A DNA stretch of 63,998 nucleotides, counting the filler, from Diploschistes diacapsis (lineage: Eukaryota): assembly GCA_023645945.1 (NCBI GenBank). It is 8 parts of 8 records of this genome, joined end to end, with 100 filler letters (N's around TTAATTAATTAA, not from the genome) between each part and the next. Parts side by side here need not be neighbours in the genome. Positions count along the whole stretch, not along the records: positions 20,901 to 48,497 come from JALAIB010000160.1; 7 more parts are not named here. One strand, written 5' to 3'. A model generated the notes under the pieces. That model did no database searches. It saw only the letters and a program-made list of their open reading frames with translations, and had not been told where the DNA came from. This document shows, one piece after another, positions 20,901 through 45,757 of the stretch (positions are counted from its first letter, which is position 1; every line of letters begins with the position of its first letter). The translations under genes and the position numbers were made by a program.

Positions 20901-20906
20901 GGCCAA

Positions 20907-21229
20907 GGCTCCGCGACAAACCTCGTAGATTTGGAGCATAGATTACTATTATGTAGATCTCCCCTGCTGGCAATAACGAGCCCGTAATCTAAGAAAATCT
21001 ACTCCAAAAAAGTGACAAAAATTGATCTACGACTGTTGTAGGATCTAAATATCTATAAATTGATGCTTTCTTTCCTCGGACCACTTTATTCTTTTCTTCG
21101 GACTTCAGCTATTTAATCCGGAGTAACATTCGGATTTCAGCGAGATCTACACGCCTGCTTCGTCAGCAGCAAAACCTACTTAACTAATTGAAATCTGCGC
21201 TCCAAATCTACTACGTTTGTTGCGGAGCC
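20907..21229. mobile_element. MITE with about 38-bp imperfect TIRs (PIF/Harbinger-like)
   Basis: Left ggctccgcgacaaacctcgtagatttggagcatagatt vs reverse complement of right end ggctccgcaacaaacgtagtagatttggagcgcagatt (5 mismatches); flanked by CAA / TAA; non-coding interior rich in AGATCT/AAATCTA motifs. Confidence 0.7.
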
Positions 21230-21343
21230 TAATGCATACTAGACGCTAAATAAAAAATATAATGGGGGGCAGAATCCCTTCTCCTTCCTCCTCATATCAG
21301 AGACAGTACTGAAACCCTATTGGCATACCACACAAGCAGCGCA

Positions 21344-21727
21344 ATGCCTGTCACCTTCACGGTCAGCCTAACCAAATAACGTACTGATAGTGAGCTGACC
21401 GACAAGTAGAACCTGTACGCACGAGATGCGGGCCTGGACACCGACTATTACCTGAATGTGCATATGCCATTGGTGGCACGACTGCTGGGGCCCAACATTT
21501 TGCTATCCTGGACGCTGTGGAAATTACCCGACGACAGTCCGTTCTCGTACGAAGCCGCGGTTACTTGGGTCAGTCTCGAGGCACGCGAAATGGCTCTCAA
21601 AACCGAGGCCGGTCAGCAGTGCAAGGATGATGTGCTCAAATTTGTGAAGAAGCCGGCATTGGTGATGTTGCGACAAGAGCTCGGATCGGGTCTGGCGCGG
21701 GATGTCGTTGACCAGCGCGATGCTTAA
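21344..21727 (+). CDS. EthD-family (dimeric alpha-beta barrel) protein, 2 exons
   Basis: Exon 21344-21361, intron 21362-21409 (gtcagc..gctgac..tag), giving MPVTFTNLYARDAGLDTDYYLNVHMPLVARLLGP...LSW...YEAAVTWVSLEA...DDVLKF; matches the EthD pattern LY..(F)D.DYY...HMPLV. Confidence 0.75.
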
Positions 21728-22091
21728 GACTGGGCATGTTACTCGTTAGTCTCAATAGAAATAGTGCTTATCGAGTCTATGGGATCTTCACCTTGCATTA
21801 TTAGGAAGGGGCTTTGAAGCTTGTGTGCTTCCTTCTACCCTGAGTATTTCCGGCACCAGCTAGTCAGCTTGGGATGATGACTGATGACTTGTCCGACTTT
21901 CGCCCTCATATCGATGCTGTCCCAGTCGTGCCCCTGGTTGGTGATTCTTACGCTCTGCATCCCGCAAGTCTGCTCGCCCTCACTATAAGGCTGATGTTCC
22001 AGGAAAGAAATCACTCGACCCTCCGCTTCTGCCTTTCACATCCTTCCGCTGCCGCTCCCCTTATCACTACTAAGGACAGTCTCTCCTCACC

Positions 22092-22904
22092 ATGCCCATC
22101 ATTGCACTTGGCCAGCTCGACTGCCCACGCATTCTCTGTCTGCATGGTGGCGGTCTCAATGCCCAGGCATTCCGTCTCCAGTGCCGTACCCTATCTCGCA
22201 CGCTTGATGGCCAATTTCGCCTAGTTTTTGCTAACGCGCCGTACGAATCGCCAGCTGATCCTAAGGCTCTCCCAGCTTACGCGTCTCTGGCCCCATTTCG
22301 CCGCTGGCTGCGCTGGAAGCCCGAACAGCCCGACCCCGGTCCAGAAGCGATCTGCGCTGCGATAAGCCTCGAGGTCGAGGCGACTATGGCTGCCGATACC
22401 ACCGCTGGGGCCTCGGGGCCATGGATTGCCGTCATGGGCTTCAGCCAGGGTGCAAAGGTTGCGGCCAGCATGCTGCTTATGCAACAGCTGCGAGCCGAGC
22501 AAGGCGTTTCAAAGTCACCATGGGCACAGGAGCCCCTGCCCAACTTTCGCTTCGGTGTCTTCCTGGCTGGACGTGCGCCCTTAGTCGCTCTGGAGCCCGA
22601 TTTGAGCGACTCGCTAGCACTGGCTGATGCCAATGAGCTCACCACGGGAGCCTTTGCTCAAGTCACTGGTGTCTACCTACGCGGCTCCGAGCACGTTCTC
22701 CGCATACCCACCATACACGTGCACGGCTTGCAGGATCCGGGCATTGAGGACCACCGTCGTCTGCTCAAGGACTACTGCCAACCAGGTACAGCTTTCACCC
22801 TGGAATGGGACGGAGATCATCGCGTGCCAATCAAAGCGGCAGATGTCGCTGCTGTTGCGGAGCAGATCCTTTTCGTGGCCAAGAGGACAGGCGTGGTGTC
22901 GTGA
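22092..22904 (+). CDS. FSH1-family serine hydrolase (CitA/AfoC/LovG-like PKS accessory esterase)
   Basis: PRILCLHGGG, PFRRWLRW, nucleophile GFSQGA, PTIHVHGLQD (Asp), WDGDHRVP (His). Confidence 0.92.
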   Translation: MPIIALGQLDCPRILCLHGGGLNAQAFRLQCRTLSRTLDGQFRLVFANAPYESPADPKALPAYASLAPFRRWLRWKPEQPDPGPEAICAAISLEVEATMAADTTAGASGPWIAVMGFSQGAKVAASMLLMQQLRAEQGVSKSPWAQEPLPNFRFGVFLAGRAPLVALEPDLSDSLALADANELTTGAFAQVTGVYLRGSEHVLRIPTIHVHGLQDPGIEDHRRLLKDYCQPGTAFTLEWDGDHRVPIKAADVAAVAEQILFVAKRTGVVS

Positions 22905-23240
22905 AGAGCCGCATCGGCTTCTGGGTGTGGCAGTTTCGTGGCGTACCACATGGACTAACAGTACCACGGCCCCCGTGGTCGGCAATTGCTCCACCGCTCA
23001 TGACATGTCTTGTTCTTGTTTAGCGCCGTCATGAATAATCTTTAAGACGACCTAAGAGATTATGGTAATAGCTCGCGACACTACGGAACGGCTCGAACAG
23101 CGGTCTACCACCACGGTCTACCACCACTGCCTAGATATTCGGTAAGTGGGGGAAGGTGAGGGAAGGCGTGGGGGACACGCGGGAATAGCCGTCTTCGACA
23201 TGCCAATCTGGGCAAGCGCTTATATAAGATTTATTAATCA

Positions 23241-23441
23241 ACGTGTTTCACCAATCACACCACAAAGTGGCTCACTACATTATAATGTAATTGCGCTAGA
23301 TAGTTTTAAGCGAGCTTTTGAGCCCCACAACCACACATGAAATTATCGTACGAAAGGTGAAAATGTTAAGAAATACATTTTACGAAGGTGCAGGGATTGT
23401 GAGCCGCTTTGTGGTGTGATCCGTTGTGTGGTGAAACACGT
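23241..23441. mobile_element. 201-bp MITE (Tc1/mariner-pogo-like ACGT ends) upstream of the PKS
   Basis: Left acgtgtttcacca-atcacaccacaaagtggctcac is inverted to right gtgagccgctttgtggtgtgat(ccgttgtg)tggtgaaacacgt; right end followed by TA. Confidence 0.7.
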
Positions 23442-24164
23442 TAGTAGATTACACAGAATAAAGGCTAGCGCTGAGGCTAAGTTGGGGTCTTTTAACATCT
23501 ATTTTTAATAACAGGATATACCCCTGCTTGAATAGTTAATCGATCATGGCGCCCATCCGAAGATCGCTTGCATACGTATATCCTAGTACTAGTACTTATG
23601 TTCATGCAATATCTTGTTCGACAACCCTAACCTTGACGAGTCAGTCTACACCAGCTTACTTGCACTATCTTGCGTGATTGAAACCATTGTATCCCGAAAA
23701 ACCCTTGTTGGCTAGTGGCCTCTTCACAACCGTTGGCGTACGTTTCTCTGCTCATGGCTTCGAACGATATGCTCCTGCACGCCTGATGGTAGGGGATAAC
23801 GAAACATCAAGGATCCCAAATCCTCTAGGATTCTGTTGAATAATGTTTTGATGCTAGGTCTGAAGCCATGATAGCTCTCTTAAAAGTGTTTGGATTAGTG
23901 GTGGATGTGATTGCAGATGCACTGACATGCATGGGGAAACGTTGTTCGAATCCTGTTGATCATTTCCACTTCAATCACTTCGAATCCTAGACGCAATGAG
24001 GAGGACAACACGGATGGGGAGCTTCTGCATTGTACTCAACCATGCCCGAAGGTTGGTGCAGTACTTCTCAGTGAAGAAGATATCAAATACCACCGCGACC
24101 CCAAACATTTTAGCCAGTAATTGTCTCTCAACAACACAGAGGCTCGCCTTGTTTCAACAGCAAG

Positions 24165-27100
24165 ATGGTTGCACCTCCTCCCCACCTAATCTTATGCGGT
24201 CCTCAAAACAATTCCTTCTCGCAGGAGCAACTGCTTAATCTTCATCATGTCTTGGCGAGTCACCACACCATTTATACGAGCCTCGAGTTGGCCGTCGATT
24301 GCGTACCTTCTCTGCTGGAAAGGGTTAGGAGGACGGATCCTACGCTGATCCTTGGGCAATCAACTGTTATCAACGGACCCCTGATCCAATGGCTGTCTTC
24401 CGGTAGACTCAACGAGCGTTCCGACACGCTCTCTAACACAGCTTCTCTGCCCCTTACAGTCTGTCTCCAGATTGCACAGTATCTTCAATCTCTGAAGTCG
24501 AAGGGTGTCTCGTCCAATGACTACCGGCATGTTCTCCAAGACCTGCAGCAACATGGTGCTCAAGGTTTCTGTGCAGGATTCCTTACTGCTGCCGCGATTG
24601 CCTTCTCTGAAAATGAAAAGCAACTGGCCGAAAACGTAGCTACCAGTGTTAGGCTGGCAGCCTGCATTGGTGCATATGTTGATGACAACTCGGCATCGGG
24701 GCCCGCAACAGTACTCTCCGCCAGATGGAAGCAAGGTGGTTCTTCCTTGTCAGAGTTAAACAGCGTTTTAAATCACTATCCAGGCGTAAGTTGTACTCCC
24801 ATTATACGCAACAGCCACATTAAAATGGCGAATGAAAGCTAACAGTAACCTCAAGGCCTACGTATCTTGCATCACGGACGAAAAATGTGTTACCGTCACC
24901 GCCTCTGCTGGTGATGAGACTTCCCTCATAGCGGCCTTGAAAGCCGTCGGAGCGCGTGTCAAGAAAGTCGACATCACCGGCCGTTTCCACAGGTTGGACA
25001 TCTACTCCGACGCTGCCCTAAAATTGACCAAGATCACCAAATCTACTCCAGGCTTGCAGTTCCCGGCCGCATCCGAGCTTAAGCTTCCCCTACGCTCAAA
25101 TGCTACGGGCGAGCTTATCACTGAGGAGATTTCTGTCACGAACCTTGCAATCGAGTCCATCCTATTAAGAACGGCCGACTGGTATGGTACTGTGCGCCAG
25201 AGTCTTGCTTGCCATCCAACTTCTTACCCATCCATCACGACTTTGGCGTTCAATGAGGCTGTCGTGCCAACGAGCCTTATGCAGGGGCAAGAGGTAAATG
25301 GTATGCAGCACATTGATCACGGCGTAACGAACGGACATAACGGTAATGGCGCAATCAACGGGCTAAAGGGCACGCCACACAGCAAGCGCATATTGAATGG
25401 CGCAGCGTCCAAGTCGGTGTCGAGCCCTACAGGCCTGACTGCAAAGTATCCATCACATGCCGTGGCAGTGATCGGCATGGCTGGCCGTTTCCCGGGCGCT
25501 GACGACGTTGATAAATTCTGGGACCTGCTAGCCTCTGGTGTCTCGATGGTCCGCGAGGCACCCAAGGAACGCCTACCTTTGCATGGCCAACGCCTTGCCG
25601 ATCGACCCATGACCACGTTCTGGGGCAACTTCATTGAGGACCCTGAGAGCTTTGATCACCGCTTCTTCAAGAAGTCGTCCCGTGAGGCTGTTTCCTGGGA
25701 TCCTGAGAAGCGAGTTCTGCTTCAGGTTGTTTACGAAGCTCTAGAGGCCGCCGGCCATTGGGGTCCTCTAGGACAGACTGCTTCCAACGACTATGGATGC
25801 TATATGGGTGTTGTTGCAAATAACTACTACGATAACGTGGCGTGTCACCCCCCCAATGCCTACTCCATGCTAGGTACCTCTCGGGCTTTCTACAGTGGCC
25901 GGATTTCCCACCAGTTCGGTTTCACTGGCCCAGCTATGTCGATCGACACTGCATGCTCGTCCTCGCTGGTTGCTATCAACGCAGCGTGCAAGGCCATTCA
26001 GGCTGGCGAATGTACCAGGGCAGTTGCAGGTGGAACAAATATCTTTACCAGTCCATATGACTACCAGAATCTCGCCGCCGCCGGCTTCCTGAGCCCCTCG
26101 GGTGGTTGTAAGCCCTTTGACGCATCGGCCGACGGCTATTGCAGAGGTGAGGGTGTGGCTGCCGTTGTCCTAAAGTCTCTCGACCAAGCCATAGCAGAGG
26201 GCGACAACGTGCTGGGTGTCATTGTTGGCTCGGCTGTCAATCAGAACCACAACGATGCCCACATCACCGTGCCCTGCGCCTCGTCACAGACGACCGTCTT
26301 CAAGAAGGTGCTTGATATGGCCGGCGTTGAGCCCTCCGAGGTCTCCTATGTGGAAGCGCACGGCACGGGAACTCAAATTGGTGACCCGATCGAAGTCCAG
26401 AGCATCCGTGATACTTTCGGCGGCGCTGACCGTAAGGATAAGCTCTTCTTCGGCTCTGTTAAAGGCCATATTGGCCACACTGAGGCCAGTGCCGGAGTCT
26501 CGGGCCTGATCAAGGTGCTGCTTATGCTGCAGCACCAATCCATCCTCGGCCAGACCGGCTTCTCGAAGTTGAACCCAAAGATTCCAGCTTTGGCTCCGGA
26601 CATGATGGAAGTGCCAACCAAAGTCCAGCCGTGGGCGGTAGACAATCGTCTTGCGTGTGTGAATAGCTACGGTGCTGCTGGCAGTAATGCGGCCGTTGCT
26701 GTGCAGGAGGCAGGCTTCTATGCGAACCCCGAGCCGAGCTCTCGCCGGGCTGCTGCTGCGAAACAGCCATTTTTCCTTTCCGCGGCATCGAAGGGAAGTT
26801 TATCTGCTTATGCTGAGAGACTGCTCGAACGCGTGACTTCGCTCAAGGCTTCTTCGAAGGATGAGAGTGGCTTGCTAAGCGATGTCCTCTTCCATCTCGC
26901 GGATAGGGGCAACCACACTCTCGCCTACACAGTGGCAAAGAATGTTACCGACTTCAACGGCCTGCAACAGATTCTCGACGACATCGTTTCCGGCAAGGAA
27001 GAGCCGCTGGAGGGTGCAGGGAACAGCACTCCACCCGTGATCATGGTTTTCAGTGGGCAGGAGAAGGAATTGGTTGGTCTTTCTCAAGCAGTAATCGACT

Positions 27101-30100
27101 GCTCTAGTTTGTTCAAGAAGCACCTTGATGTCTGCAACTTTGAGGCAGCCAGACTAGGGATTGAGGATCTGCACTCGGCCTTGACCAAAACCCAACCTAT
27201 CAACGAACTTCCCACGCTGCACGCGGCCTTGTTTGCGTCTCAATACGCAACCGCTCAGACCTGGATTGACTCTGGATTGACGGTACGGTCGCTTGTCGGC
27301 CACAGTTTCGGCCAGCTAACTGCCCTCTGTGTCGCCGGCTCCTTGTCCGTGCAAGACGCTCTAACGCTCGTCATTCAGCGTGCCAGGCTCATCCAAAAGC
27401 TTTGGGGGAAAGAGCGTGGTGCTATGATCTCCGTTCAAGCCGATCGTGCTGCTGTCGAGGATCTGATCAGCAAGGCTCAATCTGAAATTGACGACGGGAA
27501 TCTTGAAATTGCTTGTTACAACCACTCAACCAACCACGTTGTCGTTGGCACTACCGCTGCGATTGACGTCTTCGAGAAAACTATCGCCGCACAGCCATCC
27601 ATGAAGGCGAAGAGGCTGAATGTTACGCATGGATTCCACTCTGAACTGTCCGAGCCATTACTGCCGAGCCTTGCGGAGATTGCAAGAGGTCTCCGGTGGC
27701 ATAAGCCTACTATTCATGTCGAGCTTACAACAGAAGCAGCATTAGGCAAGGAACCTGGTGCGTGGCTGGTGCCCGAGCACACAAGAAAGGGCGTATTCTT
27801 CTCATCCGCTGTGGAAAGATTGTCTGAGAAGCACGGCTCCGCTCTCTGGGTTGAGGCAGGCGCCGGCTCTTCGGTCCTGTCGCTTGTCAAGAACACTGTC
27901 TCCGGTAGGGGCAATAACGTGCTGGCTCCAAGCTTCCTTAACAACGCAACCAGCGCCGTCGCCTCAGTTGCGGAGACCGTCGTTGAAATGTGGAAGGCAG
28001 GTGTTTCTGTCCAATATTGGCCCTACCACCGCTCTCAGCGTTCCAGCTACGCACACTTAAGTCTACCGCCATATCAGTTTGAGAAGACCAAGCATTGGCT
28101 GCCATTCGTGGAGCCAACTGCCACCGAATCGGCCAAGGAGCCTGCAGTTGAGCCCACTCCTAGAATCATTACACATCAGTTCCTCTCGCTGCTTGAGAAC
28201 GATGAAGGGAAGAAGGAATCGCTCTTCCTTGTCGACCCCGAGAGCAAGCGATACATGTACCTTCTCAATGGCCACATTGCTTCTAATCAGGCGCTTGCCC
28301 CAGCGTCGCTTTACGTGGAGCTACTCTCGCTCGCGACGCTGAAATTGGTTGAGGGCTCCAGCTACGATACGCACGTCACCAATATGGACGGTGTGAAAAT
28401 GGTGGGTGCGCCGATCGGCCTTGATGCGAAGAAGAATATCTTCATTCGCCTCAAGCGGCGCTCGGACGCACTCAACTATTGGGAGTTTGAGTTCTTCAGC
28501 AAGTCCAAGGCTGGCGACGAGCCACCCCAGACGCACACCCTTGGTAATGTCGGTCTGGATAGGAGGGACGACCCGCTCTTGAAGGAAACGATTATCCGTT
28601 GGAGCGCTCTGATCGACTACAACCGTTGCTTGTCACTCATGAAAGACGATACTACCGAGAGCATGTCTGGCAAGCACATTTACATCGCCCTCCAGCGTCT
28701 TATCTACTTCGACGAAATGTACCACGGAATAAAAAGCATCGCTTACCAAGGCCACCATGCCGCAGGAAAGGTTGCTGCGACTCTGGACCCAAGTCTGGAT
28801 CCCAAGTTCGCTTTGTACGATACCCCAACGATTGATGGCATGATGCAATTCGCTGGAGTGCTGGTGAACTATTTTGCCCACCCTAGCGGGAAGGAAGTCT
28901 TGCTCTGCCAGGGCATTCAGCGTGTCGTGACCGGTGGATCCTTCGATATCGCTGCCAAAGAGTGGATTGCCTACTCCCTGCTCACTGAGGACAGTGATGA
29001 GCGTACCGTCGCCGATGTCTACATCTTCGACAAGAAATCAAAGCAGGTAGTCATTGCCTTCATGGGCTTCATTTTCACTCGAACTTCCGTTTCCATGCTG
29101 CAACGTTCTCTTCGTAGCGTCAACTCCGGTGGCGCTCCTGCGCCAGCTGCTGCGCCTGCTCTGCCACTTCCCAAACCTACTGCTGCAGCTGGTAAAGCCA
29201 GTAATAAGCCGAGCAACAAGCCAAGGATCTACGAAATAATATCCAGTGTCACTGATGTCCCTGTTGAGGAGCTAGCAGATAGCGCATCCCTAGAAGACCT
29301 TGGCATTGATTCCTTGCTCGTCACTGAGGTTCTAAACGAAATTCATGATGCCCTCGGTCTCGAAATTGACCTCAACGACTTTCTCTTCTTCCCCACCCTC
29401 GGTCACGTCTGCCAATGGGCTGATAGCGCCCTCGGAAGTGGCGGCGACGCCGAATCTCCTGAGGTTCCTGCTGCAGCTGACAGCGTGGCTGCCGGCAAAG
29501 AAGTTACGGCTACAGCGGCCAATGGAGACACTTCTCGCCCACCACTTATTGAAGCCCGCCAGGTCTTCGCCGACTGCAAATCAGCCTACTCCGACTCCAC
29601 CATCGATACCGGCGCCGCCAGTTTCTGGTCAAACGTCTATCCAGAGCAGGCCGCCCTTGTCCTAGCCTACGTTGCGGAGGCCTTTGCTAAGCTGGGCTGC
29701 GACATGACCGCCCTCTCCGCCGGTGCCGAGGCTCCGCAAATCTACGGCAAGACCCTCGACCGCCACGCTAAACTCGTGGCTCAATACTACAAAGTGCTCG
29801 AGGACGGCGGATACCTTGAAGATGGGGCTGGCAAGCTCGTCCGCACGAGCAAGCCGGTCGACACCACGCCCGCTAATACGCTGTACGAGAAGATTATACC
29901 CAAGTGGCCGCAGCATGCGAACGTGCACAAGATCGTGCAGGCTGTTGGCAGTCAGCTTGCCGCATGTCTAACGGGAGAAGCAGATGGCCTGCAAATCGTG
30001 TTTGGAAATAAGGAGAACAAGAAAGCTCTTGATGACTTGTACGAGAACTGGCCTCTCGTGCGCTCCGGCTCCGTCGCTCTGGGCAGCTACCTTGAGACCC

Positions 30101-30663
30101 TATTTAGCAAGTCCATTGCACCGGCCAAGTATCGCATACTGGAAGTCGGCGCCGGCACTGGTGGTACGACACGATACATAGTACGCCACCTGCAGAAACT
30201 CGGCATTCCTTTCGAGTACGTCTTCACCGACCTATCGGCCTCGCTCATCGCGCAGGCGAAGCGCACATTCAAGGATTGCCCCGAGATGGAGTTTGCGACG
30301 CTTGATATCGAAAAGGAGCCCCCAGAGAAATGGGTGAATGATTTCCACATCATCATCTCCACGAACTGCATCCATGCAACGCACGACTTGACGGTGTCTT
30401 TAAGCTCGCTGAGGAAGTTGCTTCGAGACGATGGCGCGTTGACGCTGGTCGAGATCACGCAGAACATGTTCTGGCTTGATATTGCCGTTGGTCTGTTTGA
30501 GGGCTGGTGGCTAATGGAGGATGGCAGAACGCATGCCGTGACGCATCAGGATCGATGGAAGAAGGACATGCTGACTGCTGGGTTTGCGGATGTGGATTGG
30601 ACGGATGGACCGGATAAGGAGGCGCAGACTATTAGGGTCATCGCTGGGTTTGCTAGCAAGTGA
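24165..30663 (+). CDS. Non-reducing polyketide synthase SAT-KS-AT-PT-ACP-cMT, no terminal TE or R domain (2142 aa)
   Basis: Exon 1 24165-24785, intron 24786-24855, exon 2 to TGA 30663. SAT GFCAG; KS DTACSSS/EAHGTGT/KGHIGH; AT GHSFG/HGFHS; PT LNGH...DGMMQ; ACP LGIDSLL; cMT LEVGAGTGG; protein ends at the cMT end (..RVIAGFASK*). Confidence 0.95.
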
Positions 30664-31062
30664 GGAAGAAGGCTTGGGGAAATTGTTTTTGTGTATGTAG
30701 TTTCGAATCGGAATTTATTGGCTCTATCGATAGTCTGAAATGAGATCACGTTCTCAATTGCATACATGGATATTTGTCTTTCCTCTTCTCCTTAACAAGA
30801 CCACCTTATCGAACGGGCAGCCTATAGTATTACAAACCACGTTCGCGACAGCACACAATCAAGAGAGCTGGAGCATCGGCATGGCGAGGTGACCCCAAAC
30901 AACGGGTCATGTCAGCCGCGCGTGGTTGCCACGTGGTTGATCGACGTTTGGATGCCAAGTTAAATGCAAAGTGTTCCTGGACCAATCTACCCCGATGGGC
31001 CAATGCTCAAGAATCCACTCGCGTTCCCAGATATTGAAGCTCGGAAATCTGAGGCTAAGCTG

Positions 31063-31099
31063 GATGAAGATGAAGAAGAAGAAGAAGAAGAAGAAGAAG
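31063..31099 (+). repeat. (GAA)n microsatellite
   Basis: gatgaagatgaagaagaagaagaagaagaagaagaag between PKS and MFS. Confidence 0.9.
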
Positions 31100-31518
31100 C
31101 AGGTGCCAACTTCTGCTACGAAGGCTGAGCTAAATACTACTGCCGAGGCATCAGCTCCTGCCTGAAACAACCCCCAGCCTAACAGTAAGACTCTACCCTA
31201 GGCTATATATATATATCTATCTATCGATCGATCTATCGTGATGGCCGGCGTTAGCAAGCTGGGAGGACGCGACGCCGACGCCATGCCGAGCTGCCGAGCG
31301 GAATAAGAATAAGCTGCGCTGAGAGATGTAACGTTAATATGTAACCCTCTAACGGTCTGATGTAGGTTTGATGTAGGTTTATCGTGTCCGATGCCTTCTA
31401 TGTTCTCTTCCCGTTCTTGGGCATCTCTAGTCATTCCTTTCTTCCATTCTCTCCTTTTCTAAACTTACAGTATCATCACCCGAACGGCGGACACTCTTCG
31501 TTCCAGCAAGAAGACGAG

Positions 31519-33153
31519 ATGACTAGCACAGCAACACAAACGGAGGTCGCCGAGCCTCAACTCTCGAGTTCAAGAGACAGGGACAGACTTCACAATGCAC
31601 TACGGTCGACAGTCAGCCTTTCCGCGAGCTCTCTTGATGAAGACAGATATCCAAGCAGTTTCAGCATTCCTATACAACATCCGGGCAGTGTCGACATTCC
31701 TATGAGCAATATTGGTCTCGCTGTGTTCAATTCCACGGACGACATCCGTGGATCTGCCATCCTAAGCCCAAGAATAAGAGAACAACCGTCCGGCGAAGCA
31801 CTATTCTCTCGCCTCGTCGCTTTCGACAAGCCCAGCGACCCCCTCAACCCTAAAGACTGGTCCATGGCCGCAAAGTTCAGCGCCACTGTTATCGTATCTG
31901 GCTTCGCATTCCTATCCCCTGTCGCATCCTCCATGGTCGCGCCGGCGCTTCCCCCTCTCGCAGCCGATCTGCACATTACCACGTCTATTGAAGAGGCTCT
32001 CGTCCTTTCCATTTTCCTCTTGGCCTACGCCATCGGGCCTCTGCTTATTGGGCCTCTGTCGGAAATCTACGGTCGCGTGCCGGTCCTCCAGCTCTCGAAT
32101 TTCTTCTTCATCATTTTCAACATGGCTTGTGGCTTCTGCCAGACCCCGGCACAGATCATCATCTGCCGCTTCTTAGCCGGTATTGGGGGCGCCGCCCCGA
32201 TCAGTATCGCCGGCGGCGTGATCGGAGACTGCTGGAACGCAGAGCAGCGCGGGCGCGCTCTTGCCATCTACTCCGTCGCACCCCTCATCGGGCCTGCCGT
32301 CGGCCCCATCGCCGGCGCCTGGATCAGCCAAACCACAACCTGGCGCTGGGTATTCTGGTCCTCGTCCATCTTCAGCGTCATCATACAAGGCCTCGGCCTC
32401 ATCTTCCTGCGCGAAACCTACGCCCCTAAAATCCTCCAACTAAAAGCCAAGCGCCTCCGCCAGGAAACCGGCGACGCGAACTGGCACGTAGCGAAGGACC
32501 CCAAAGCCGACCCGGACCTGTCTCTCCTCGTCAAGCTCCGCACCAGCATCCAGCGCCCCATCATCATGCTGACCACGCAATCCATCGTCATTGTCGTCTC
32601 CCTCTACATGGCCTACGTCTACGGCATAACCTACCTCGTCCTCTCCTCCTTCGCCAGCCTCTTCACATCCCCCGCCTACTACTCCATGCCCGCCGGCATT
32701 GCCGGCCTGAACTACATCGCTCTGGGCCTGGGCTACGTCACCGGCGCCGAGCTCACCGCCCGCCTAAACGACCGCACCTACCGCAGCCTCAAGAGGAAAA
32801 GCGGCTCGGAGCGCGGCCAGCCCGAATTCCGCGTCCCCGGGATGGTCCCCTGCGCCATCCTCCTGCCCATCGGCTTCCTGTTCTACGGCTGGACGGCCGC
32901 GACGCACCAGCACTGGATCCTGCCCGACATCGGCGCCTTTCTGATCGCCGTCGGCACCGTCAGCGGCATGCAGAGCATGCAGGCGTACGTCGTCGACACG
33001 TACACGCGGTACGCGGCGAGCGCCATGGCCGCCGCCATGGTGCTGAGGAGTCTCGCCGGCTTTGGCTTTCCGCTGTTTGCGCCCATCATGTACGAGTCGC
33101 TCGGGTACGGCTGGGGGAATACGGTGCTTGCGGGGGCCGCGCGCAACTGGTGA
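31519..33153 (+). CDS. MFS multidrug transporter, DHA1 family; C-terminus atypical or truncated
   Basis: DPLNPKDWS, GPLSEIYGR, RFLAGIGG, GPAVGPIAG, WRWVFW, ETYAP, PEFR, GFGFPLFA, LGYGWGN. Confidence 0.92.
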   Translation: MTSTATQTEVAEPQLSSSRDRDRLHNALRSTVSLSASSLDEDRYPSSFSIPIQHPGSVDIPMSNIGLAVFNSTDDIRGSAILSPRIREQPSGEALFSRLVAFDKPSDPLNPKDWSMAAKFSATVIVSGFAFLSPVASSMVAPALPPLAADLHITTSIEEALVLSIFLLAYAIGPLLIGPLSEIYGRVPVLQLSNFFFIIFNMACGFCQTPAQIIICRFLAGIGGAAPISIAGGVIGDCWNAEQRGRALAIYSVAPLIGPAVGPIAGAWISQTTTWRWVFWSSSIFSVIIQGLGLIFLRETYAPKILQLKAKRLRQETGDANWHVAKDPKADPDLSLLVKLRTSIQRPIIMLTTQSIVIVVSLYMAYVYGITYLVLSSFASLFTSPAYYSMPAGIAGLNYIALGLGYVTGAELTARLNDRTYRSLKRKSGSERGQPEFRVPGMVPCAILLPIGFLFYGWTAATHQHWILPDIGAFLIAVGTVSGMQSMQAYVVDTYTRYAASAMAAAMVLRSLAGFGFPLFAPIMYESLGYGWGNTVLAGAARNW

Positions 33154-33699
33154 GATGGATGTTTAATATATAATAATGTATTAATCTTTTTTTTGGCCGG
33201 TCGCTTTTTTATGTGGCATATTCTTGAATTGCGGAAATCTTATGCGTTTGTTGATTTTGTTTCCCATGATATAGAGTGTGACCCCGTGTTGCTGACCATT
33301 TATTTTAGTTCGATAATTTTGCCCGAAAGCCCCTGGTTTGAACTATTTATTCAAGTTGCGTTATTGAATACAGTACCAATGCTGGTGTATTTATAATAAT
33401 ACATGTTAACAACTATTAATGAAATGCGGCCTTTGCGCTGCCACCACGATTCATGACAAATATACTAAAAGCTGATGAAGAAGAAAAAAAAAGATATCCA
33501 CAGCTATTAAAACAACAGAAGGCGGATTAGACAAAAACCAGAAAACGTTAATAAACATAGATAGGGGGCAGATCACCATACTATACGGAAAAATCTCAAG
33601 TAAAAGATAAAAAGGCATGGGATTGTGAATCTCGGTCGTGGGGGGGGGAGGTGTCCTCTGGAAGGACCCCCCCCTTTTCACCGACCACGGGCTATCAAC

Positions 33700-35200
33700 G
33701 TTTTTATGTTTACAGTAGCAGTGGCAGAGTCGAACCCACGACCCACAAAGGTCTGCCAGCAGTCCTCTTCGCCATTCAAACCATGTGCCGCCAACTGACG
33801 AACCCTTTTACGAGTAAGCTGGGTTGGAGTCAGCACGGGCATCGAAAGCAACGGCCGAGACGATGGATATGGCTATCGTAGCTTCAGTACTAACAGGCGG
33901 CGCGTTGGGGTTTTGAGATCACGGGTCCCGTGCCTGGTAAAAGGGGCGATGGGCTTGTAGCGACTCCTGTTGAGAACTCAGGAAACAGCACTTGTTGTAC
34001 AAAAGGTTTCGAGCACTCGTAGTTAGTTATTATATAGGCTTCCTGAAAAAAAGCTCGTCCAAGTGTATACTGGGATTCATTCAATGCTTGTCCCAGTGGA
34101 GAATATCGCGTGTTTTTTGTCGTGATTCCAGGGTAATCACGTGTGAGGCTGAAATCAAAAGTCGCAGAAGGGAGACCGATGTTGATGGTGGGCGTTTTTC
34201 TCGTCAAGTCATTAGTTAATATGATTCTGCTCGAGGAACGCAATATGAACAGTATCGTGGACAAAAGTACAAACCGTTTGTGGAATTGAAGGTGAGGTTA
34301 AAAGCCGATTGAAAAGCGTCACGTGCGGCCTTGAGTAGCCAGATATGAGGGACCCCAGAGTCCAGAAACGCTTTAATGGGCTCGCCGAGAAGATTCCGGG
34401 ACGTTGTGTCTGCCGTTATCGAAATCTCTTGCAACTTCTGTAGCAAACTTGCACGTCGTATTGTGAGCCACATGTCGGTTGCCATCGGAGCCTCCGAACG
34501 TGAGACTAGCGAAGCCGGACTTGCCAATTTGACTTCGATAGTGTGCCCCAGCTGCGTAACCCCAAGACCTGCTGGATAAGGCTCGAGTTCTTGAGATTTG
34601 TCACCAGTGAGAGATACCTGTTGCTCATATCCGTGAGGTTCATCTCGTCAGGTCGAATACCCCAGTTGGCGGGAAAAAAATCTTCAGAAACGATTCCAGC
34701 GATGAGCTGATTGGACAGCATGATATTGCCCGCCTGCGAGCTAGGAAGTCCAAGTGTGACATTGTCCCATCCAAAGTTCCCCTAACCCTGCTGCCGAGAT
34801 CCTACTCGATCAGTAGCGAATAAAGGCCGCTATCTTTCCATCAAGTTGAAATATTCTTGTTAAAAGTCCACCTCGATTATACGGGCAGGCAGCTGGAAGG
34901 TTCGAATTGCAAGCCTGTGGAACCACTGCGTTCGGCAGTGTCGCTGTCGTGGAGATGAGCAGATTCAGACACTGGGGAGGCGTGCCAATGCCGACTTGGA
35001 AAAGGTTCCACGGCCCGTCCTTGCCAAACCTGGACGCAAAATCTGTAATATTTGTTCTTCAAATCAACGGAGTCATATGTGTACTTACTAATTCGGGCAA
35101 GGTGCTATTGACAGTGGAGTAGGGTTCGAGCTACTTCCAGAAGCAAACGCTTGAGCAAGAGGCTTCTGAGCAGAAGTAGCCCGGCATAGCCATGGCATTA
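33700..35200 (-). pseudogene. Degenerate A1-type aspartic protease-like gene
   Basis: Fragments DGPWNLFQVGIGTPPQ, FLDSGVPHIWL, TLGRAFFQEAYIITNYE spread over frames with stops and frameshifts. Confidence 0.7.
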
Positions 35201-36151
35201 GGGTCCAGCTTGTCTTTCTTGAGAACGTAAAATCAGAGATTTGGGAAGCCTCTCGAGGTACTTAGCCAAAACCTATTGTCGGATGCGATCACCATGACCC
35301 AAGCATGCGAAATCGAACGAGGCGTGCGAAGGTTTACATTGCACCATATGAGAGGCTAAAGAGCATGCCATAGTCTCAAGGCATCTTACAAACAACGCAG
35401 CAGTTGGAGTCTGGGGTTATCGCTCAGAGGTGACTTCTGACAGAACGGTTGCATACAGAAACTCCGCCTGAAGGCAAGCTCTGAGTGGGTATGTACTGTA
35501 CTTGTTGGCCATCGGAGATAGAGGCAAGCACGCACAGCCTTGTCGTGTGATCTCCCTTCATGGATCAACTAATGCCTCTCGAACCTCAACAGGCTGTGCT
35601 ATTTCAGCAGCAGCTTCCATTTGTCGTTTCATGTGCCTTTTTCTTTCTATCTGCAGCAGCATCTTGATGCTCTAAATATTGACAGGCGGCCTAGTGTTGC
35701 ATTATTTCTTCGTTTTGCGATGCATAACCAACTGTACGAGTACGCATGATTTTGATTCGGTAGCCTGGCGCTGTTGTACGGCACACGTCGATGAGGCCGG
35801 TGTGCCTCCCAACTACCTCTGCAAAGCTTCGATCGTTCTCCAGAAAAACGCTATCTCCAACCCCATATGCCGCCATTTTATGAAGTGAATCCAACAATGC
35901 GAGATGCAGACTGAGGTTTCCTTGCTTCCAATCCCGCCTGCATGACTTAAATAACGTAGAGTGCTGTCTACTGCAGGGGCTGAACGTACATGAGGGCTAC
36001 TTGCCCAAGTCATGCCTTGCCGCCTGCTGCGCCGACAGTTGAGATCTGGCGAAGGATTTATGCTTAAGAAGCTCTGTAGCCGAACATCACTTTATAGCTT
36101 GGCTATCGACACTCAGATGTTCCTGTAATAAGTTAGAATACTAACCTCAAC

Positions 36152-36580
36152 ATGTTGAGAGTCATCTATTCAATCTCGTTTGTGTTCTTGTGCCTTGTTG
36201 GCTTCGGCTTAGGCAATGCATCAGTGGTAGCTGAAGAAGCATTTATTCTTGAGAGGGGCGAACCAACAGTACCGCAGAGGATAAGCGTCCCCAAAAAGCA
36301 TGGGAACGACTGAGAATCACGCTCAAATCTTTCGCCACCGGAAATAACACTGCCGGCGGCAAATGTCCTGGAGAAGCGTGCATTGACCCAGAATCATGCT
36401 TAAGTTACCATCGCCGAGCACCGACGAGACAGATATGCATCTCCCGGAATCTTTCAGCTCAGAACGTTTGGTCCAACTACCCGCTCAAAGTCCGGAATAT
36501 CGAGCCACGATGCGGACGCGGAAGCATCGTATCCTCAAGGTTGGAAACAACACATCTCAGGGTCGCGGTGGCGGTGACGT
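36152..36580 (+). pseudogene. Possible decayed small secreted pre-pro-protein
   Basis: Signal-peptide-like MLRVIYSISFVFLCLVGFGLG; in-frame TGA at 36311; same frame continues to NVLEKR-AL (Kex2-like site), then TAA. Confidence 0.3.
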
Positions 36581-39500
36581 TGGCGCCGACCCTGAACGAG
36601 AGGGCAACTGCAGGTAGTTGACATTCTGCAGTGATGCACCTGTCCTGCGACCTCAACCCTCTGCTATAACTCAGGTTTCGATTTCTTGATTACCAAAGCT
36701 CTTCGGCAGGAATGAGCGTGAAGTGATTTTTCAATGCCTCCGCAGGATTTTTTGAATAATACTGAAATCTTCTAGTGTGTCGGCGAGGTCAACCAGTGAT
36801 CTTCAGCCAGCCGTCAGACGACGAAATCGACGGCCTGCACGGATCTTCAAGCAGATTCTTTCGTTCTTTGAATATCTTCACATAGAGGCTGGGGAAGGTG
36901 GGGAGTCTGTTGTTTAGTGTCCTTGTAGCAACTTAATATGTATTTATACTTTATGAAAGCGACAGTTATCTAATAGAAGAGTATCAGTCGTTCGACCACC
37001 CAAGATGTTGCTATGTTCAAGACAAATCTGCGTAAATCAACATCGGTGAGGGTTCACTTCTCAGATCCCCTTATTGAAGGAGAAAAGTGCTCACTCTCAG
37101 CAACAAAAAAACTCTAAAATTTTGGTTTGGTGCCTTCATTCTGTGCTCTAGTCAGTCCACATTTCATTCTGGTCTTCGAAGGACAAGGAGAAAAAGATGG
37201 TACCAAATAGCACTATCTACCGATCACAAGCATAGGGGTTGACACTTACACGCAATTTCTGCGTAAAACAGCTTGCTGATGTGCACACTTCATGCAGGCC
37301 AGTTGAAGGGGACAATCCGAGTGTTTTCTCGTGGCTGATATTGATTCTCCCGCCTCTCACTCGCGACTGCTGCACTCAGTACAAAGGAATCACCCATTGC
37401 CGGCTCTTGGAGCTGGTTGAGGTGAGGATAGAGAGAACCGCCTCCGCCGCAGCGGACCAGACCCCCAATCACGACTCCGGAGTCCAGCGTACTCACTGTT
37501 GTCTTGAACCCCGACCCGATTGACCTCGGGCTGGGGCTTATTCTTTTCCGATTAATACTGTACGCTCTATCTGGCTCCTATCTGTGCATGGACCTAGCAA
37601 GTTCGACGTGATGGATGTGTTGGCTGCAAAGAATATACAGTTCTGACTCCGCTGGCATGGAGCATACATCAGCGGATCTCGCGCCCTTCTGAAGTTCTTG
37701 GATATGCTCGATTGATGTAGTACTTCGTATTGAGGCTTTGGCGGTGTTGTGTGGATTAAGAACACAACTAGACAACACCATGAGATACGTTCATTTACAT
37801 ATATCGCTATTCTCAAACCTGAAACTGCATTGTTTCGCTTTCAGATTGATCTAGGTAGGTGAGCCCGGTGTGGGAAGATGAGTGGCTTCCAATAGTGGTA
37901 GAAAGGAAATGTAGATGTAAAGAATAAAGCTGGATCTTTCCCACTTCAAGTGCAAGCTTTCAGATCAGGACCAGATCAAAATCAACGTCATGCTCATCGC
38001 AGGCCCTTCTTGTCTCTGAAAAGCCGCAGTCCCCTCCTTTAAACTTGCAATAGCATGGGCGTCAGTCTCATCAAGTGGGTTGTACCTTTTCCATTCGTCC
38101 TTTACGGCCACCAATCTACCAAGGATTCTTTACTGCAATGCTTCGTCGACTTCACCATACATTTCTGAACCATCGCGTCAATGGTATTGTTGTTCACGCA
38201 TTCAAGATCAACCGAGGAGATAAAGATCGAAACAGCTAGAACATTTTTGGGTGACACTGATCAACCTTTCAGAGGTGAATTCGTAAGCATACAAATGCAC
38301 GTCCAACGGAATGGCTTGCCGCCTTTGCCTACAGTGGCAAAGCTTTGCCGTTCATACTGGTGACTAACACAAGCGTAGATGGCCTGAACTTGAGATGGAG
38401 CAGATACGTACTATTTGTTGATCTTAGCAGAGTCCGTTGATGCGTCATCGAAAAGGCCTCCATTCGGGTTGCAAGAACAAACCCAATAACTGCAGTGATA
38501 TCGCCATCTGCACACCTTTTATGTCTTCGCGATGTCTTCAGCAATCTTTTTCCATCTGTGATAACTCGACACTTGATGACTGATTCTTGGGAAAGGAACT
38601 ACTTAGCTACCATTTTCGTCGTATCCTCGTCGTTCCTGCGGCGCACATTAGAGGGTACGGTATGCACCATCGACCTTGCGAAAACTTACTCGGAAGGAGG
38701 TACACTTACCTAGCGAGTTCTGCAGAGGGTATCTTCTTAGCCATGGAATCCTCGCCGTATCCCCGTGCAGCACGTCAATCGGATTTGGTTCTCAGCCGAC
38801 ATGGGCCTGCGTTGATGGCTTAGCGTCTTGAATGGCATGTGGCTCGCTCATCCAAAGAAAGTCCGTTGGTTGCGCTTTGCCAATACAACGATGCTTACCT
38901 CATTAGGTTAATATTCGGGGGCCGAGTCACATCCTCCTCGGATACGCAGAAGTAGGCATATAAACTTGAGAATCTGCAGCGAGGCTGTTGGGTTGCCATC
39001 AACGAGCAAGCGGACTATCTCGCCCGACAAGCAAATGTGCTAATGTTGCTTTGAGTTTGTTGACGCGACATCCTACGCATCATCTGAAGACGGAAGGGAA
39101 GATCACCATCTAATGGCATTGACCGCTTATTGATTCAGCTAGCCACAACAGCTGTGGACATCCTATGAATTAGAATAAGGACCGACAATATTGCGCTGCG
39201 CATCCTCCCTAAATTGTAAACCACCGTTTTGACTGTGCTAATCACAAGGACAAAGCAAGAACGTGAAAACTCGCATATCAATTCCTTTCTTTTACTGGGA
39301 GAATCTGCATCGGGTGCTGACCTAAACCCATGAGTTAAGCGAAGTTATGCGGTCAGAGTACTGTCGCTCAATCCCGTGGTATCTGAGGTTATTAAGCAAA
39401 CTGATCCATGGTGGTTAAGGGCTGGACAATTGGCATTGGAGAGACGCCAACGACGCCAACGACGCCATCCCATTTTTCAGCCAACGCGCGGACGTTTAGT

Positions 39501-41884
39501 TTCTTATCGCCTGATTCGAGCCTGCCACTACGTATGGGCCCTTCATCAGTGTCTCAAAAAGTTTCATCCTGAGTAAGGAACGCTTTGCGTATAACTAGTA
39601 GCTAATTGTGATGTATTGGGATAGTTTAATCAGCGATATCTCTTTTGGGGGCTTTATCAATGGAACGCCCAAGACATCTCGGAGGATGACACGGTATCTC
39701 ATCAAGGATAGTTGGTTTAGCCGTATATCTGCACATGCAGCTCACAAATAGCCGCTTGATCTTTTACACCCACTCAACGGGGTCCAAAACTCCTCAAACC
39801 AGTGCGTAAAATAGACAGTTCTAACCTTCATCCAATGATAATACATATCTTCGTAATTTTTGAAGTCTTCAAAGATAATCAAAAGAAGTTTGACACCGAA
39901 CTGGATAAGACGAAGAGGAAACCTTGGGATCCCATCACCACACAACACCCAAACATCCCTCCAGAGAACCTGAACGTTGGTCTTCGAGAACTAACCGAAT
40001 GGGCCCTGCTAATAGCCAGCCAGACTCAGATGAGTTCCTGAGTCAACAATTCAAGGTCCTGATCGAGAAAGAAAAATAAACAGTAATTCAGATCAATGCA
40101 ACGTAGGTCAAGGATAAAAGCGGGACAGTGTTTGATCACTATAACACAAACTCTCCAAAGGCACCGTACCCAAGACTTGGCCCAGTATTCAAGCAATGTT
40201 CTGATCGGATATGATCCGAGAGAAAAAGCCGGAAGGTTCAAAACATTTTTTTGGTATTTACCATGGGAGAAGCGGTTTGATGGACCTTGCAGCGTTTTGC
40301 GGAGTCAACTGTTTCTTTTGGGACGACCCCTTAGCTAGAGTAGCTTGGGCCGATTCGAAGGCACTGACATCTCTCGGAACCGTAGGACGCATGAACGCCC
40401 TTGACGGACAGATCCCACAATGCCTTCGGTCGATGGGATTGTGTCCGCTCATGAGTGTCGACCTTCCTGAAATGGTTCCAACCGAGGGAGAACCGATCCA
40501 ACACTGGCACGAAATCAGAGTCGGGGGCTTATTGTCGCAGTGGCTTGAAGGCGGAACGAAAGGCACATTGTACCCAAAGGCACCAACAGGGGAGAAGTGG
40601 ATCGTATGTCCCTGATATCTGGACTATTCCTGAACATGTTTGCTTACATCTCAAGGCCGATAAAATCACTTGACGGTTTGCGTGGATCATTTCATTAGGC
40701 GTCCCGAGTTGGGATCGTGTCTGAGGCACTGATTGAAGCCGGATACCTCGATAAGAAACCAGGATGCGATGTCGATGTCGGTGAGCGCGGGACAGCTGGG
40801 AATGATGCTACGTGAGGGTAGATACAACTTCTTGTATGCTTAACATCGTAGAACAAATTTTCTCCCCGAGTGTTTCTTGCTGAAGTTTGACCTGCGGACT
40901 CAGGTTATTACACATTTAGCTCTGCATGTGCGTAACTTGTGTGCCAGAATAGTGACAAGAATTCTGGAATCCAAATTGAACGCCATCACTGAAAAGGTAG
41001 TTTGGTGCAACAATCAAGTCAGGATCTGGATAGCAATATATGAAATTAAGCCGATAGTAGTGGCTAACGGCAACCATTGTGGTTGCAGAAGGTGATAGAC
41101 TTATGGAGCACACCTGACTCGCCTCTCTTTTTTTTCTATGGTACCTTAGCAGGTGATATGAATAATGATTTACTATCCTTAGGACTTTCGGATGTATTCT
41201 ATAATTGATCTGAAGCATCCTCGGAGATCCTGGGTGGGCATAAAAATTGGTGGACGAGGTATTCGGTGTGTAGATTATGGTTGTTAACAATATGGTACTG
41301 CATGCGTGTAATGACAGTACGAGTCAGGAGCATTTCGCATCTCGAGAGCAAAATCTATGTTTTCCTGCTCCACGGGGCCTTGTACAATTCTCTCGCTTTT
41401 GATTCGACATCATGGCCTGCTTATCTGATAGACTTCAGCATCATACGTTACTGCAAGCGAGTACACGACCGCAATTCTGTATATCCACCAAAATGGCCAG
41501 AAAATCTGCGACCTTTAGAGCTCCCTTCATGACCGAGCAGGGCCTCCGTGTTCTCTGACCTCATTGTTCGGGATTTGTAGGACCGCCCCTACCATCAATA
41601 GGATGTCTGAAATACGTCTGATATGCAGAGAACATCGTTCAAGAAATCGTGAAATGGGCGGGGACGGTTCGTACAACCGCTGTACAGGTATCCAGGGCCT
41701 GAGCGAGCGCGCTGGCGTTAGAAAACCCAAATCAGAATCGTTATTTGCCTGGCTGCGGGAAGCGTACCTAAAATGCACCTTATCAATTTTCGCTCCACTC
41801 GTGCTCATGCTCAAGTCGGTCATGAGATGTGTCGTTTGCCATATCCTCCCAATACTCCCTGCTGAAAGGCAGCCTGATCCCCCT

Positions 41885-43013
41885 TCAAAATCGTTCCTTC
41901 ATCCTCGACGCCACGATCCTTAGATTACCATACACCTTCCCAGGCGGGCTTCCTAATATTAGGCTTACAATTGCCTCACGTCCGATACGTATATTCTTAA
42001 ACCCGCCTAGCCTAACTCGGTCAACACGTGATACCACAAGCACACTCGAGACTTACAGATGGACCTTCTGGTCGGCTGGCGAGAGGTTAGCTTGAGTTGG
42101 GAATCTCGACGGAAGGGGCGCACCTAGGACAATCCGTGTCCTCGAGGCATTCTCAATGGCAAACTTCGTCTTCCCCTATCACGAGTTGAGCGTTGGACCA
42201 CCTAGGAACCCTGATATACGTACATCTTTGCCCGCGATGCGCCCAATAGCCCTCGACAAGTGCTCTCCAGTCAGGGTTTTGACATCTTTGATCTCAAACG
42301 TTTCAATATAGATATCATCGAGCCTGAGCTGGAAAGCTGCAATCAGCATAGAACAAAGGAAAGACGCGAGTGTGTAGCTCACAAGCACAATAGCATCCTC
42401 GATATCAAATCCCAAACAGAATGCCTTAACGAAATCTTCGCCTGAATCCACTTTTAGTCTGAGAGTTACAATCTTAGCAGAGCTTCCTCACCCTTTTGTA
42501 ACGCCCCCGGGTCTACCGTGTGTTTCGACGTCCTCAACTCCACCGCCCTTACTCTCGAGTGCGCATTCATGCGTACCTGCAGCAACAGGTGCTCCACCAA
42601 GGGCCCGTAGATCTTATTCCAGGATTTCCTGAGCGGCGCCATGCGATGTGCCGCTAATATAGTCAACAACATCCTTCCACAGGAAGGCAGAGACAGGGCA
42701 TACGGATGGGTATCTTGCGCGTTTCTCGGCCTAGGGGACCGTTATCGGCCTGTGTTTCGGGCGCGAACTGAGGCCGGCCTTCTTCGTCGATGTGCATGGC
42801 GCTGCTGGGGCTGTCGTCGGATGATAGTATGGCAGGTCCGAGGGGAGGAGCGCCGGGTGCGGCGTCGATGAGGAGCTCATCGCTGTCTCCTGGGCAGTTT
42901 GTTAGCGGGGAAACGTTGCTAGGTGGTCTGCGCTACTAACCTTCTGGTAGTGGAGTAGCCTGAGCTTCTGTCAGAAGATCTGGCTTGCGTAGCAGTGCCG
43001 TCGGTGCAGGCAT
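41885..43013 (-). CDS. PNO1: Pre-rRNA-processing KH-domain protein Pno1/Dim2, multi-exon
   Basis: MPAPTAL.., [82 protein letters not shown]. Confidence 0.93.
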
Positions 43014-43428
43014 GGTGTCTGTGAAGGGGAGGGTTTCGACGGTCACTAAAAAATATTGCTAGGTTTTAGGCGGGTTTTTTTGACGTTTTGTGCCGCGGAC
43101 CCCCCCCCCTTGCTGCTGATTTTGGTTCGCTTGGCGTATTTATTAACAATATGTCATGGCCTCAAGAGCATACGAGTACTTTAATGCAACATGCGAACAG
43201 GCCCAAAACCGGACGTGTTTTACAAAATACGACTAAACTCGGCAAGAGCTCCAAGACTAATGGATCTGTTCATTCAATAGGCTCGTGTCATTACCGGGTA
43301 AGAAGTATCTAACGCTTCAAGGTATCACAAGCTACGGAGACGCCTTCATGCCAAAACAACATTGCAGCACATCATACATTCAGCATACCCCACCCCCCCT
43401 TTTTTTTTGCACTATTCCAACTTCCACA

Positions 43429-45071: not shown

Positions 45072-45757
45072 GGCGCAGAACTATGAGTTGCGATCGAAAG
45101 TAAAGGATGACAAGATCACGAAGCTCAGAGGCCGAGGACGGTAGTAGAGGACAAGGCTTAAGAAAGCCTGTGAGAGCATATGAAGGTGAAACGGGAAAGG
45201 TCGGTAATATGTTAGAACGGCGCAGCCTTGTAGGATTGGGCTTCACGCCAAGTGCAGCTGAGTCTCATGGGCGAGACTGCTTGCAGGATGGGCAATAATG
45301 CCAATAATCCATCGAAAGCGAGAAGCAGTACTAGTAGTGGACCACTGTCCTGGAAGAGCCAGATCGGACAGACAAGGAAAATGGGTACCTTGTCTTAGGC
45401 TCTTAGCCGTGATTCTGTGAAAGGAAAGGCGATAACCGAGCTGATGCAGGCCCAGACCACCGTAACTTGAACGGCTGTAGTACAAGCATAGTTTAGCTTC
45501 ATCAGCACTACAGCCTTCTCTTCCTGTATGTGATCGAGATGAGTTGTTACCCCACTGTCCATTTGCCTGACTGCTTGGATCAACATGCTACGGCAAGTTC
45601 TAGTACAACGCTTGGTGTAAGCAAGCTCAAAAGAGATCATCGTGTTACGTTTTACCTGTTGTCTTGGCCGCCATGTTAATCGGGCGTCTGCTGCCAACCT
45701 AACATGCAGTCATCTTTGATTCAAGAGTTTAATCCAAGAGATGCCCAGAGGGACGAA

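Follow-up and report, generated by a model that had tools for sequence, protein, structure and literature searches.

Gene content of the locus

The window analyzed here is a stretch of 63,998 nucleotides, with N filler between its contigs, from Diploschistes diacapsis (GCA_023645945.1), and the subject of this report is a putative polyketide cluster within positions 20901-48497, which correspond to contig C669 (JALAIB010000160.1). The assembly measures 29.1 Mb and is divided into 4361 contigs. Among public data, the DNA is best represented in a lichen metagenome, possibly its source, while a second organism and a rock metagenome contain 0.46 and 0.34 of its words; introns and homologues identify an ascomycete fungus. 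As the original prediction, made from the sequence alone, had proposed, gene models and Pfam matches place four genes on the + strand of this single contig, encoding an EthD-like protein, an FSH1-family serine hydrolase, a non-reducing polyketide synthase (NR-PKS), and a major facilitator superfamily (MFS) transporter. The PKS has no release domain, and we put at roughly 0.55 the probability that the hydrolase would free a C-methylated aromatic acid from it in trans. The features of the locus, including two elements resembling miniature inverted-repeat transposable elements (MITEs), are as follows.

20906..21230, no strand: MITE-like element on the left, with 46-nt terminal inverted repeats that are 85% complementary
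21344..21727, + strand: EthD-family protein, 111 residues; 48-nt intron at 21362-21409; H-M-P-L motif
22092..22904, + strand: FSH1-family serine hydrolase, 270 residues; PF03959, E 5e-28; triad S118-D215-H243
23240..23443, no strand: second, high-copy MITE-like element, between the FSH1 and PKS genes, with visible terminal inverted repeats
24165..30663, + strand: NR-PKS, 2142 residues, SAT-KS-AT-PT-ACP-CMeT without a release domain; one 70-nt intron, at 24786-24855
31519..33153, + strand: DHA1-like MFS transporter, 544 residues as assembled; PF07690, E 1e-43

The PKS ends directly after its methyltransferase domain

Pfam locates SAT, KS, AT, ACP, and methyltransferase domains in the PKS and no KR or ER, while the PT region, hotdog-type by its features, scores 66 bits against the TIGR04532 cut-off of 168. 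The motifs of all six domains were located, and their residues, including the PT His and Asp, are presumably catalytic. The CMeT domain aligns to the structure of the citrinin PKS CMeT (5MPT, E 9e-82), the protein and this match terminate at the same point, and the stop codon follows directly, with no R or thioesterase (TE) family detected by Pfam. A metagenome scan provided 12 further loci (L011-L022), of which only L011 is a close orthologue with flanks; its PKS intron is at the identical position. A profile made from the C-terminal 355 residues of 19 relatives that carry the esterase found no match on the D. diacapsis contig or in L011 and was positive in all three control loci (L012, L013, and L016), so no release exon is concealed downstream of the PKS, and a hidden TE exon after CMeT is rejected. 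The PKS is therefore a release-less methylating NR-PKS, as had been proposed.

Relatives were sought with the last 836 residues (PT-ACP-CMeT), and an R-domain family occurs in none of the best 120 of 489 matches. In a quick tree of 119 of these matches and the window sequence (the window's own record having been removed), the PKS falls within a 38-row clade (SH-aLRT 100) that includes Sclerotinia nivalis, four Talaromyces, two Lachnellula, Claussenomyces, seven Claviceps, and further records; its identity with S. nivalis OCU04_005623 is 61.9% across 2153 columns. Within this clade, 37 of 38 rows end no more than 15 residues past CMeT (one of the 37, P0025, is a partial record), the exception being P0030, with a 252-residue tail that has no Pfam match. 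Many of the records are unspliced open reading frame (ORF) calls, and the named gene models stop at the same place. In the neighboring 72-row clade, 71 rows extend past CMeT and the full-length members carry a PF07859 esterase. The tree has a midpoint root only, so that a loss of the esterase is the most economical interpretation rather than an established order of events.

An FSH1 hydrolase clade accompanies the release-less PKSs

As the PKS carries neither a TE nor an R domain, it would rely on the neighboring FSH1 hydrolase. This hydrolase is 63% identical to SS1G_05789 of Sclerotinia sclerotiorum, all 18 aligned partner hydrolases retain the same catalytic triad, and a PDB sequence search with it returned no match. 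Pairing elsewhere was assessed with a same-contig proxy, by which PKS and FSH1 matches with equal longest-contig size were counted together, 119 FSH1 matches being compared. An FSH1 partner was found in this way for 17 of the 41 closest PKS matches (P0002-P0042), as against 0 of the 78 others, with the split at rank 41 picked after the list was seen. All 17 partner hydrolases, together with the two fused FSH1s of Lachnellula and that of the window, belong to one 47-row clade in a quick tree (SH-aLRT 100), and the remaining 75 rows contain none of these partners; Acephala macrosclerotiorum also holds a member of the FSH1 clade (P0131). Across 18 pairs, the pairwise distances of PKS and hydrolase are correlated (Spearman 0.895, a value inflated by common ancestry and reached in 0 of 5000 permutations), and the same nearest neighbor is found for both proteins in 12 of the 18.

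Direct adjacency is seen in three places: in L011, where FSH1 is followed by the PKS on the same strand; in Claussenomyces (M1818_003260/003261); and in S. sclerotiorum, where SS1G_05787 and SS1G_05788 are the halves of the PKS and SS1G_05789 is the hydrolase. Among six metagenomic loci tested, FSH1 was detected in one (L011) and in none of the five with a more distant PKS type. In two Lachnellula gene models (P0012 and P0025), FSH1 is fused to the N terminus of the PKS, and these fusions are probably mis-joined neighbors. On these comparisons, PKS and FSH1 are the conserved core of the cluster, with EthD at times added.

The coincidence of esterase loss with a dedicated FSH1 clade across many fungi lends comparative support to release in trans, which had been proposed for this locus and which we regard as the most likely reading. 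Several points weigh against it. The same-contig proxy does not by itself demonstrate adjacency on megabase contigs, and 24 of the 41 closest PKS matches are unpaired (two of the 24 with FSH1 fused in the gene model). The PKS tree consists of search matches only, with no characterized enzyme placed in it from which chain length or methylation count could be read. CitA, AfoC, and MppD raise titer, with CitA needed for high titer and proposed to edit acyl-ACPs, and none of the three is described as a release enzyme (PMC8596599).

The main alternative, which we regard as possible at well under even odds, is that the PKS releases its own product by O-lactonization to a methylated pyrone or isocoumarin and that FSH1 is a CitA-like editor clearing stalled chains. 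Release-less SAT-KS-AT-PT-ACP-MT pyrone synthases are found in diterpenoid-pyrone pathways, and the low score of the PT region would fit such a route, although the His and Asp motifs of the PT domain are retained. Editing is the role described for CitA (PMC8596599), and SS1G_05789 has been annotated as citrinin/asperfuranone-type (PMC5372324), but the hydrolase clade tracks the esterase-less PKSs and is absent from the five other loci tested, for which replacement of the lost esterase is the simpler explanation.

The EthD and MFS genes

The EthD protein scores 36.1 bits with TIGR02118 (cut-off 30.5) and 14.6 with PF07110, below the cut-off of 22. Its structural model has a mean confidence (pLDDT) of 94.7, and the best fold matches, 3BF4 (E 8e-4) and 2FTR (E 2e-3), are both uncharacterized bacterial EthD proteins; olivetolic acid cyclase (OAC) is a weak sixth match (E 0.02). 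The splice is backed by S. nivalis OCU04_005625, which has the same first nine residues and is 74.5% identical, so that EthD is closer to Sclerotinia than FSH1 (63%) or the PKS (62%). Three close relatives, at 73-74%, were found by a search that needs shared words and thus undercounts them: that of S. nivalis, whose gene lies two locus tags from the PKS OCU04_005623; one whose contig has the same length (31014) as that of FSH1 P0137; and one unplaced. An EthD profile found no match in loci L011-L022 (best E 0.6; control E 2e-31), and the want of a counterpart in L011 counts against a fixed role for EthD in the pathway. Present in S. nivalis and not in L011, EthD is accessory. Among EthD-domain proteins, which include the fungal decarboxylases and dehydratases of the MdpH1 and AurZ type, AurZ is listed as a dehydratase, and EthD proteins are putative decarboxylases in group V PKS clusters (PMC4591646).

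For the DHA1-like exporter of the original prediction, the PF07690 match confirms an MFS protein. Its best NCBIfam match, Bcr/CflA, is below cut-off, and as assembled it is about 30 residues short at the C terminus, with the last helix clipped, relative to its two closest paralogues (55-56%). A Logan contig of run X1 is identical to the window up to 33141, after which 86 non-aligning letters follow; contig depth in X1 is absent over 33142-33232, a gap that is no proof in itself, and the next X1 contig starts at 33233. Given this departure at 33141, an assembly fault or an allelic difference may account for the truncation. The GC content at third codon positions is 0.77 in the MFS gene and 0.61-0.66 in the other three, and no MFS homologue was found beside an orthologous PKS in loci L011-L022, in a search limited to the assembly and these loci. 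The MFS gene looks like a local recruit rather than part of the core.

KS matches occur on 36 contigs of the assembly. On one of them (C4174:13907-28836), a KS, the 55% MFS paralogue, and an FSH1 lie within 15 kb, and C1458 and C2979 likewise have a KS close to an FSH1. A scan of the four upstream regions for CGG-N-CCG, run without a control, found 4 sites in two of the four regions and no motif common to all.

Transposable elements, flanking DNA, and the extent of the cluster

The MITE proposed for the left border is confirmed, with arms at 20906-20951 and 21185-21230, the right one ending 113 nt before the EthD ATG, and with matches, mostly up to the element ends, on 8 other contigs. The element inside the cluster (23240-23443) had been overlooked; it has 41 long matches elsewhere in the assembly at 83-93% identity (39 of 240 candidates scored). 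In a contig of run X2, 23236 and 23454 are linked by 11 other letters, a hint of a MITE-empty site in a relative.

These two insertions, the truncated MFS gene, and the long terminal branches of the PKS and FSH1 (0.45 and 0.49) could be taken to mean that the cluster has fallen into decay in this genome and yields no product. We consider this very improbable, as three reading frames are intact with all motifs present and, among the 12 indels listed against runs X2 and X3 (96 more exist), one is in a coding region, where it is 3 nt long. The cluster is real and intact and is predicted to be functional.

It is improbable, though less so, that these genes represent just one portion of a larger pathway, with regulators or oxidases beyond the contig start or unlinked and a different end product. 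The contig start, at a MITE, lies 443 nt ahead of the EthD ATG (about 440 had been estimated), in an assembly of 4361 contigs; a transcription factor adjoins the PKS in S. sclerotiorum (PMC6941272); and sclerin requires oxidative steps after sclerotinin (PMC11766578). Yet L011, with 10 kb on both sides, holds FSH1 and the PKS among unrelated genes, namely those for GDPD, lactamase-B, rhodopsin-domain, amino-acid permease, and ParA/NUBPL ATPase proteins, and the co-expressed group of S. sclerotiorum comprises three genes in the 20 of 29 places seen (PMC6941272). The absence of a transcription factor, an oxidase, and a partner highly reducing PKS was also upheld, as none of these (nor any second PKS domain) turned up among the 80 ORFs of at least 65 residues from 33154-48405 or in the longer ORFs of the contig. 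L011 and S. sclerotiorum give no support to the four genes as a conserved minimal pathway, since the former has FSH1 and the PKS without EthD or MFS and the latter a co-expressed unit of three genes.

The DNA to the right of the cluster had been described as decayed, a description that is not supported: 34000-43400 is mostly single-copy and includes a multi-intron PNO1 gene (about 41870-42900, - strand) that is open across its introns and is the sole PF22891 locus in the assembly. The roughly 8 kb at 33200-41500, at 45-49% GC, is mostly single-copy with short repeats at 33640-33794, about 39730-39840, and about 41180-41280, and its ORFs of at least 65 residues gave no Pfam match over cut-off. 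Beyond PNO1 on the same contig is an aspartyl protease gene in two ORFs (PF00026; 43429-45080, - strand). Other, unrelated contigs of the window carry a SPO71 PH-domain gene (50020-52881) and a RED-like gene (56696-58231).

Earlier reports of the orthologous genes

The S. sclerotiorum orthologue is already in print. In PMC6941272, sscle_05g047250 (SS1G_05787) is given as KS-AT-ACP-cMT, is assigned to cluster 05_7 with the in silico label "Aromatic polyketide/Sclerotinin," has its best outside match in T. islandicus (73%), and is up at 12-48 h of infection; among the 11 S. sclerotiorum cMT rows, it is the sole entry with a cMT and without a DH. From its expression pattern, this gene ("PKS18") is apparently the same as SsPKS17, the late-induced candidate of the main text. 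The genes 047230, 047240, and 047250 fall in one group in at least six co-expression runs (20 of 29 places seen; PMC6941272), and from gene order the first two would be EthD and FSH1. SS1G_05789 is up 2.6-fold at 48 h (PMC5372324).

As to co-occurrence and co-expression of the four genes in related genomes, PKS and FSH1 co-occur, and three genes are co-expressed in S. sclerotiorum. The gene set had not been recognized as a characterized cluster, and the literature searched, which excludes most subscription journals and MIBiG, contains no experimental study of this PKS clade, but the orthologous cluster has been published as a sclerotinin candidate (PMC6941272). The same PKS-FSH1 pair is present in Sclerotinia, Talaromyces, and Claviceps, apparently without experimental characterization, the cluster having been noted in silico in Sclerotinia.

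Proposed mechanism and product

For the release in trans that we favor, SAT would load acetyl and malonyl would extend the chain, which, bound to the ACP, would be C-methylated with S-adenosylmethionine (SAM) and then aldol-cyclized in the PT domain, after which FSH1 would hydrolyze the ACP thioester. The product would be a 2,4-dihydroxybenzoic acid bearing C-methylation: a tetraketide of the methylorsellinic type or a pentaketide acid or lactol of the sclerotinin type. EthD may serve as an optional cofactor-free helper in lactol dehydration, decarboxylation, or cyclization, and the MFS protein may export the product. What CitA-type hydrolases do beside methylating NR-PKSs is resolved only in part, since the PKSs that they usually accompany release the product through a domain of their own; release and editing could be told apart with two genes in this natural clade without a release domain.

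As to product class, a methylorsellinic-type tetraketide is our tentative first choice, a sclerotinin-type pentaketide is possible though doubtful, a pyrone is unlikely, and any other class is less likely still. Were the product plain methylorsellinic acid, the chemistry would be ordinary and only the split architecture new.

The orthologue in S. sclerotiorum, a sclerin producer, is infection-induced and is the only listed non-reducing PKS there with a methyltransferase, and so its product may be a sclerin precursor. A rather unlikely but consequential extension is that the clade is a SAM-dependent sclerotinin synthase that has lost its own esterase and uses a CitA-like hydrolase for release, with two genes sufficing for a multiply methylated pentaketide acid or lactol and with EthD as a lactol dehydratase or OAC-like cyclase. 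A sclerotinin/sclerin synthase would be expected to make a di- or trimethylated pentaketide. Sclerotinin A has been obtained from T. pinophilus AF-02 (PMC4749520), a species that holds the PKS clade member P0030, and has been reported from Penicillium minioluteum (PMC6292945) and from Phialocephala europaea (PMC7426276), a close relative of A. macrosclerotiorum.

Two published results weigh against this idea. Deletion of sclA abolished sclerin in Malbranchea, and SclA has a TE and no methyltransferase (PMC11766578); sclerotinin B is also formed by an aldehyde-forming PKS with a dehydrogenase, a third route (PMC13459410). The 12-ORF table of the Malbranchea scl cluster (Table S2 of PMC11766578) lists homologues of BcPKS12, Cmr1, and versicolorin reductase and no methyltransferase, so that it looks like a melanin cluster. 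Because BcPKS12, the homologue of SclA, is a melanin PKS, an indirect effect of the knockout is possible, but it still weighs against the idea of a sclerotinin synthase. Were that idea nonetheless true, it would reveal how S. sclerotiorum enters the sclerin pathway and would call the published SclA assignment into question.

Comparison with known systems

In its domain order and intact catalytic motifs, the PKS is a fungal non-reducing iterative PKS with a CMeT domain. Its closest counterpart is S. sclerotiorum cluster 05_7, which likewise has a PKS without a release domain and an adjoining FSH1 (63%), but in which the gene next after the PKS encodes a transcription factor and the listed transporter sits at a distance of four gene numbers (PMC6941272). 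TsPKS2 and TsPKS3 of Talaromyces stipitatus carry R domains and are not this enzyme; tspks4 of that species, which reportedly gave no product by itself, is a candidate for P0031. In addition, the Tals depside, chaetophenol, and Malbranchea scl clusters were rejected as matches, their gene content being different.

Aldehyde release in group VII runs through an R domain, which the present PKS lacks. Like the present locus, the citrinin/azaphilone systems of that group (CitS with CitA, AfoE with AfoC, and MpPKS5 with MppD) combine a cMT-bearing NR-PKS with a clustered serine hydrolase (PMC8596599), as the original prediction had stated; unlike it, they release an aldehyde (PMC8596599) and need flavin adenine dinucleotide (FAD) monooxygenases or oxidases, none of which is found on the contig or in L011. 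Group V NR-PKSs are also release-less and work with a stand-alone hydrolase, but theirs is a trans-acting metallo-beta-lactamase thioesterase, a lactamase-fold enzyme, and they have no cMT. LovG is an FSH1-type release enzyme, for LovB, which is highly reducing.

The nearest sampled relatives, at 41-49% with the PT-ACP-CMeT query, are the SAT-KS-AT-PT-ACP-CMeT-TE/CLC synthases (MPAS, the ATEG_10080-type DMOA synthase, and BcPKS19-like enzymes), which we take to be group VI; they make methylated orsellinic acids or methylphloracetophenone, and the Lachnellula orthologues of our PKS are auto-named methylphloroacetophenone synthase. These synthases have a PF07859 esterase in cis, whereas the window PKS clade has none, and no C-terminal esterase/Claisen cyclase was found in cis on the contig or in L011. 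Although it lacks both the cis esterase of the former synthases and the R domain of the citrinin/azaphilone group, the cluster can be viewed as a TE-bearing methylorsellinate synthase in split form.

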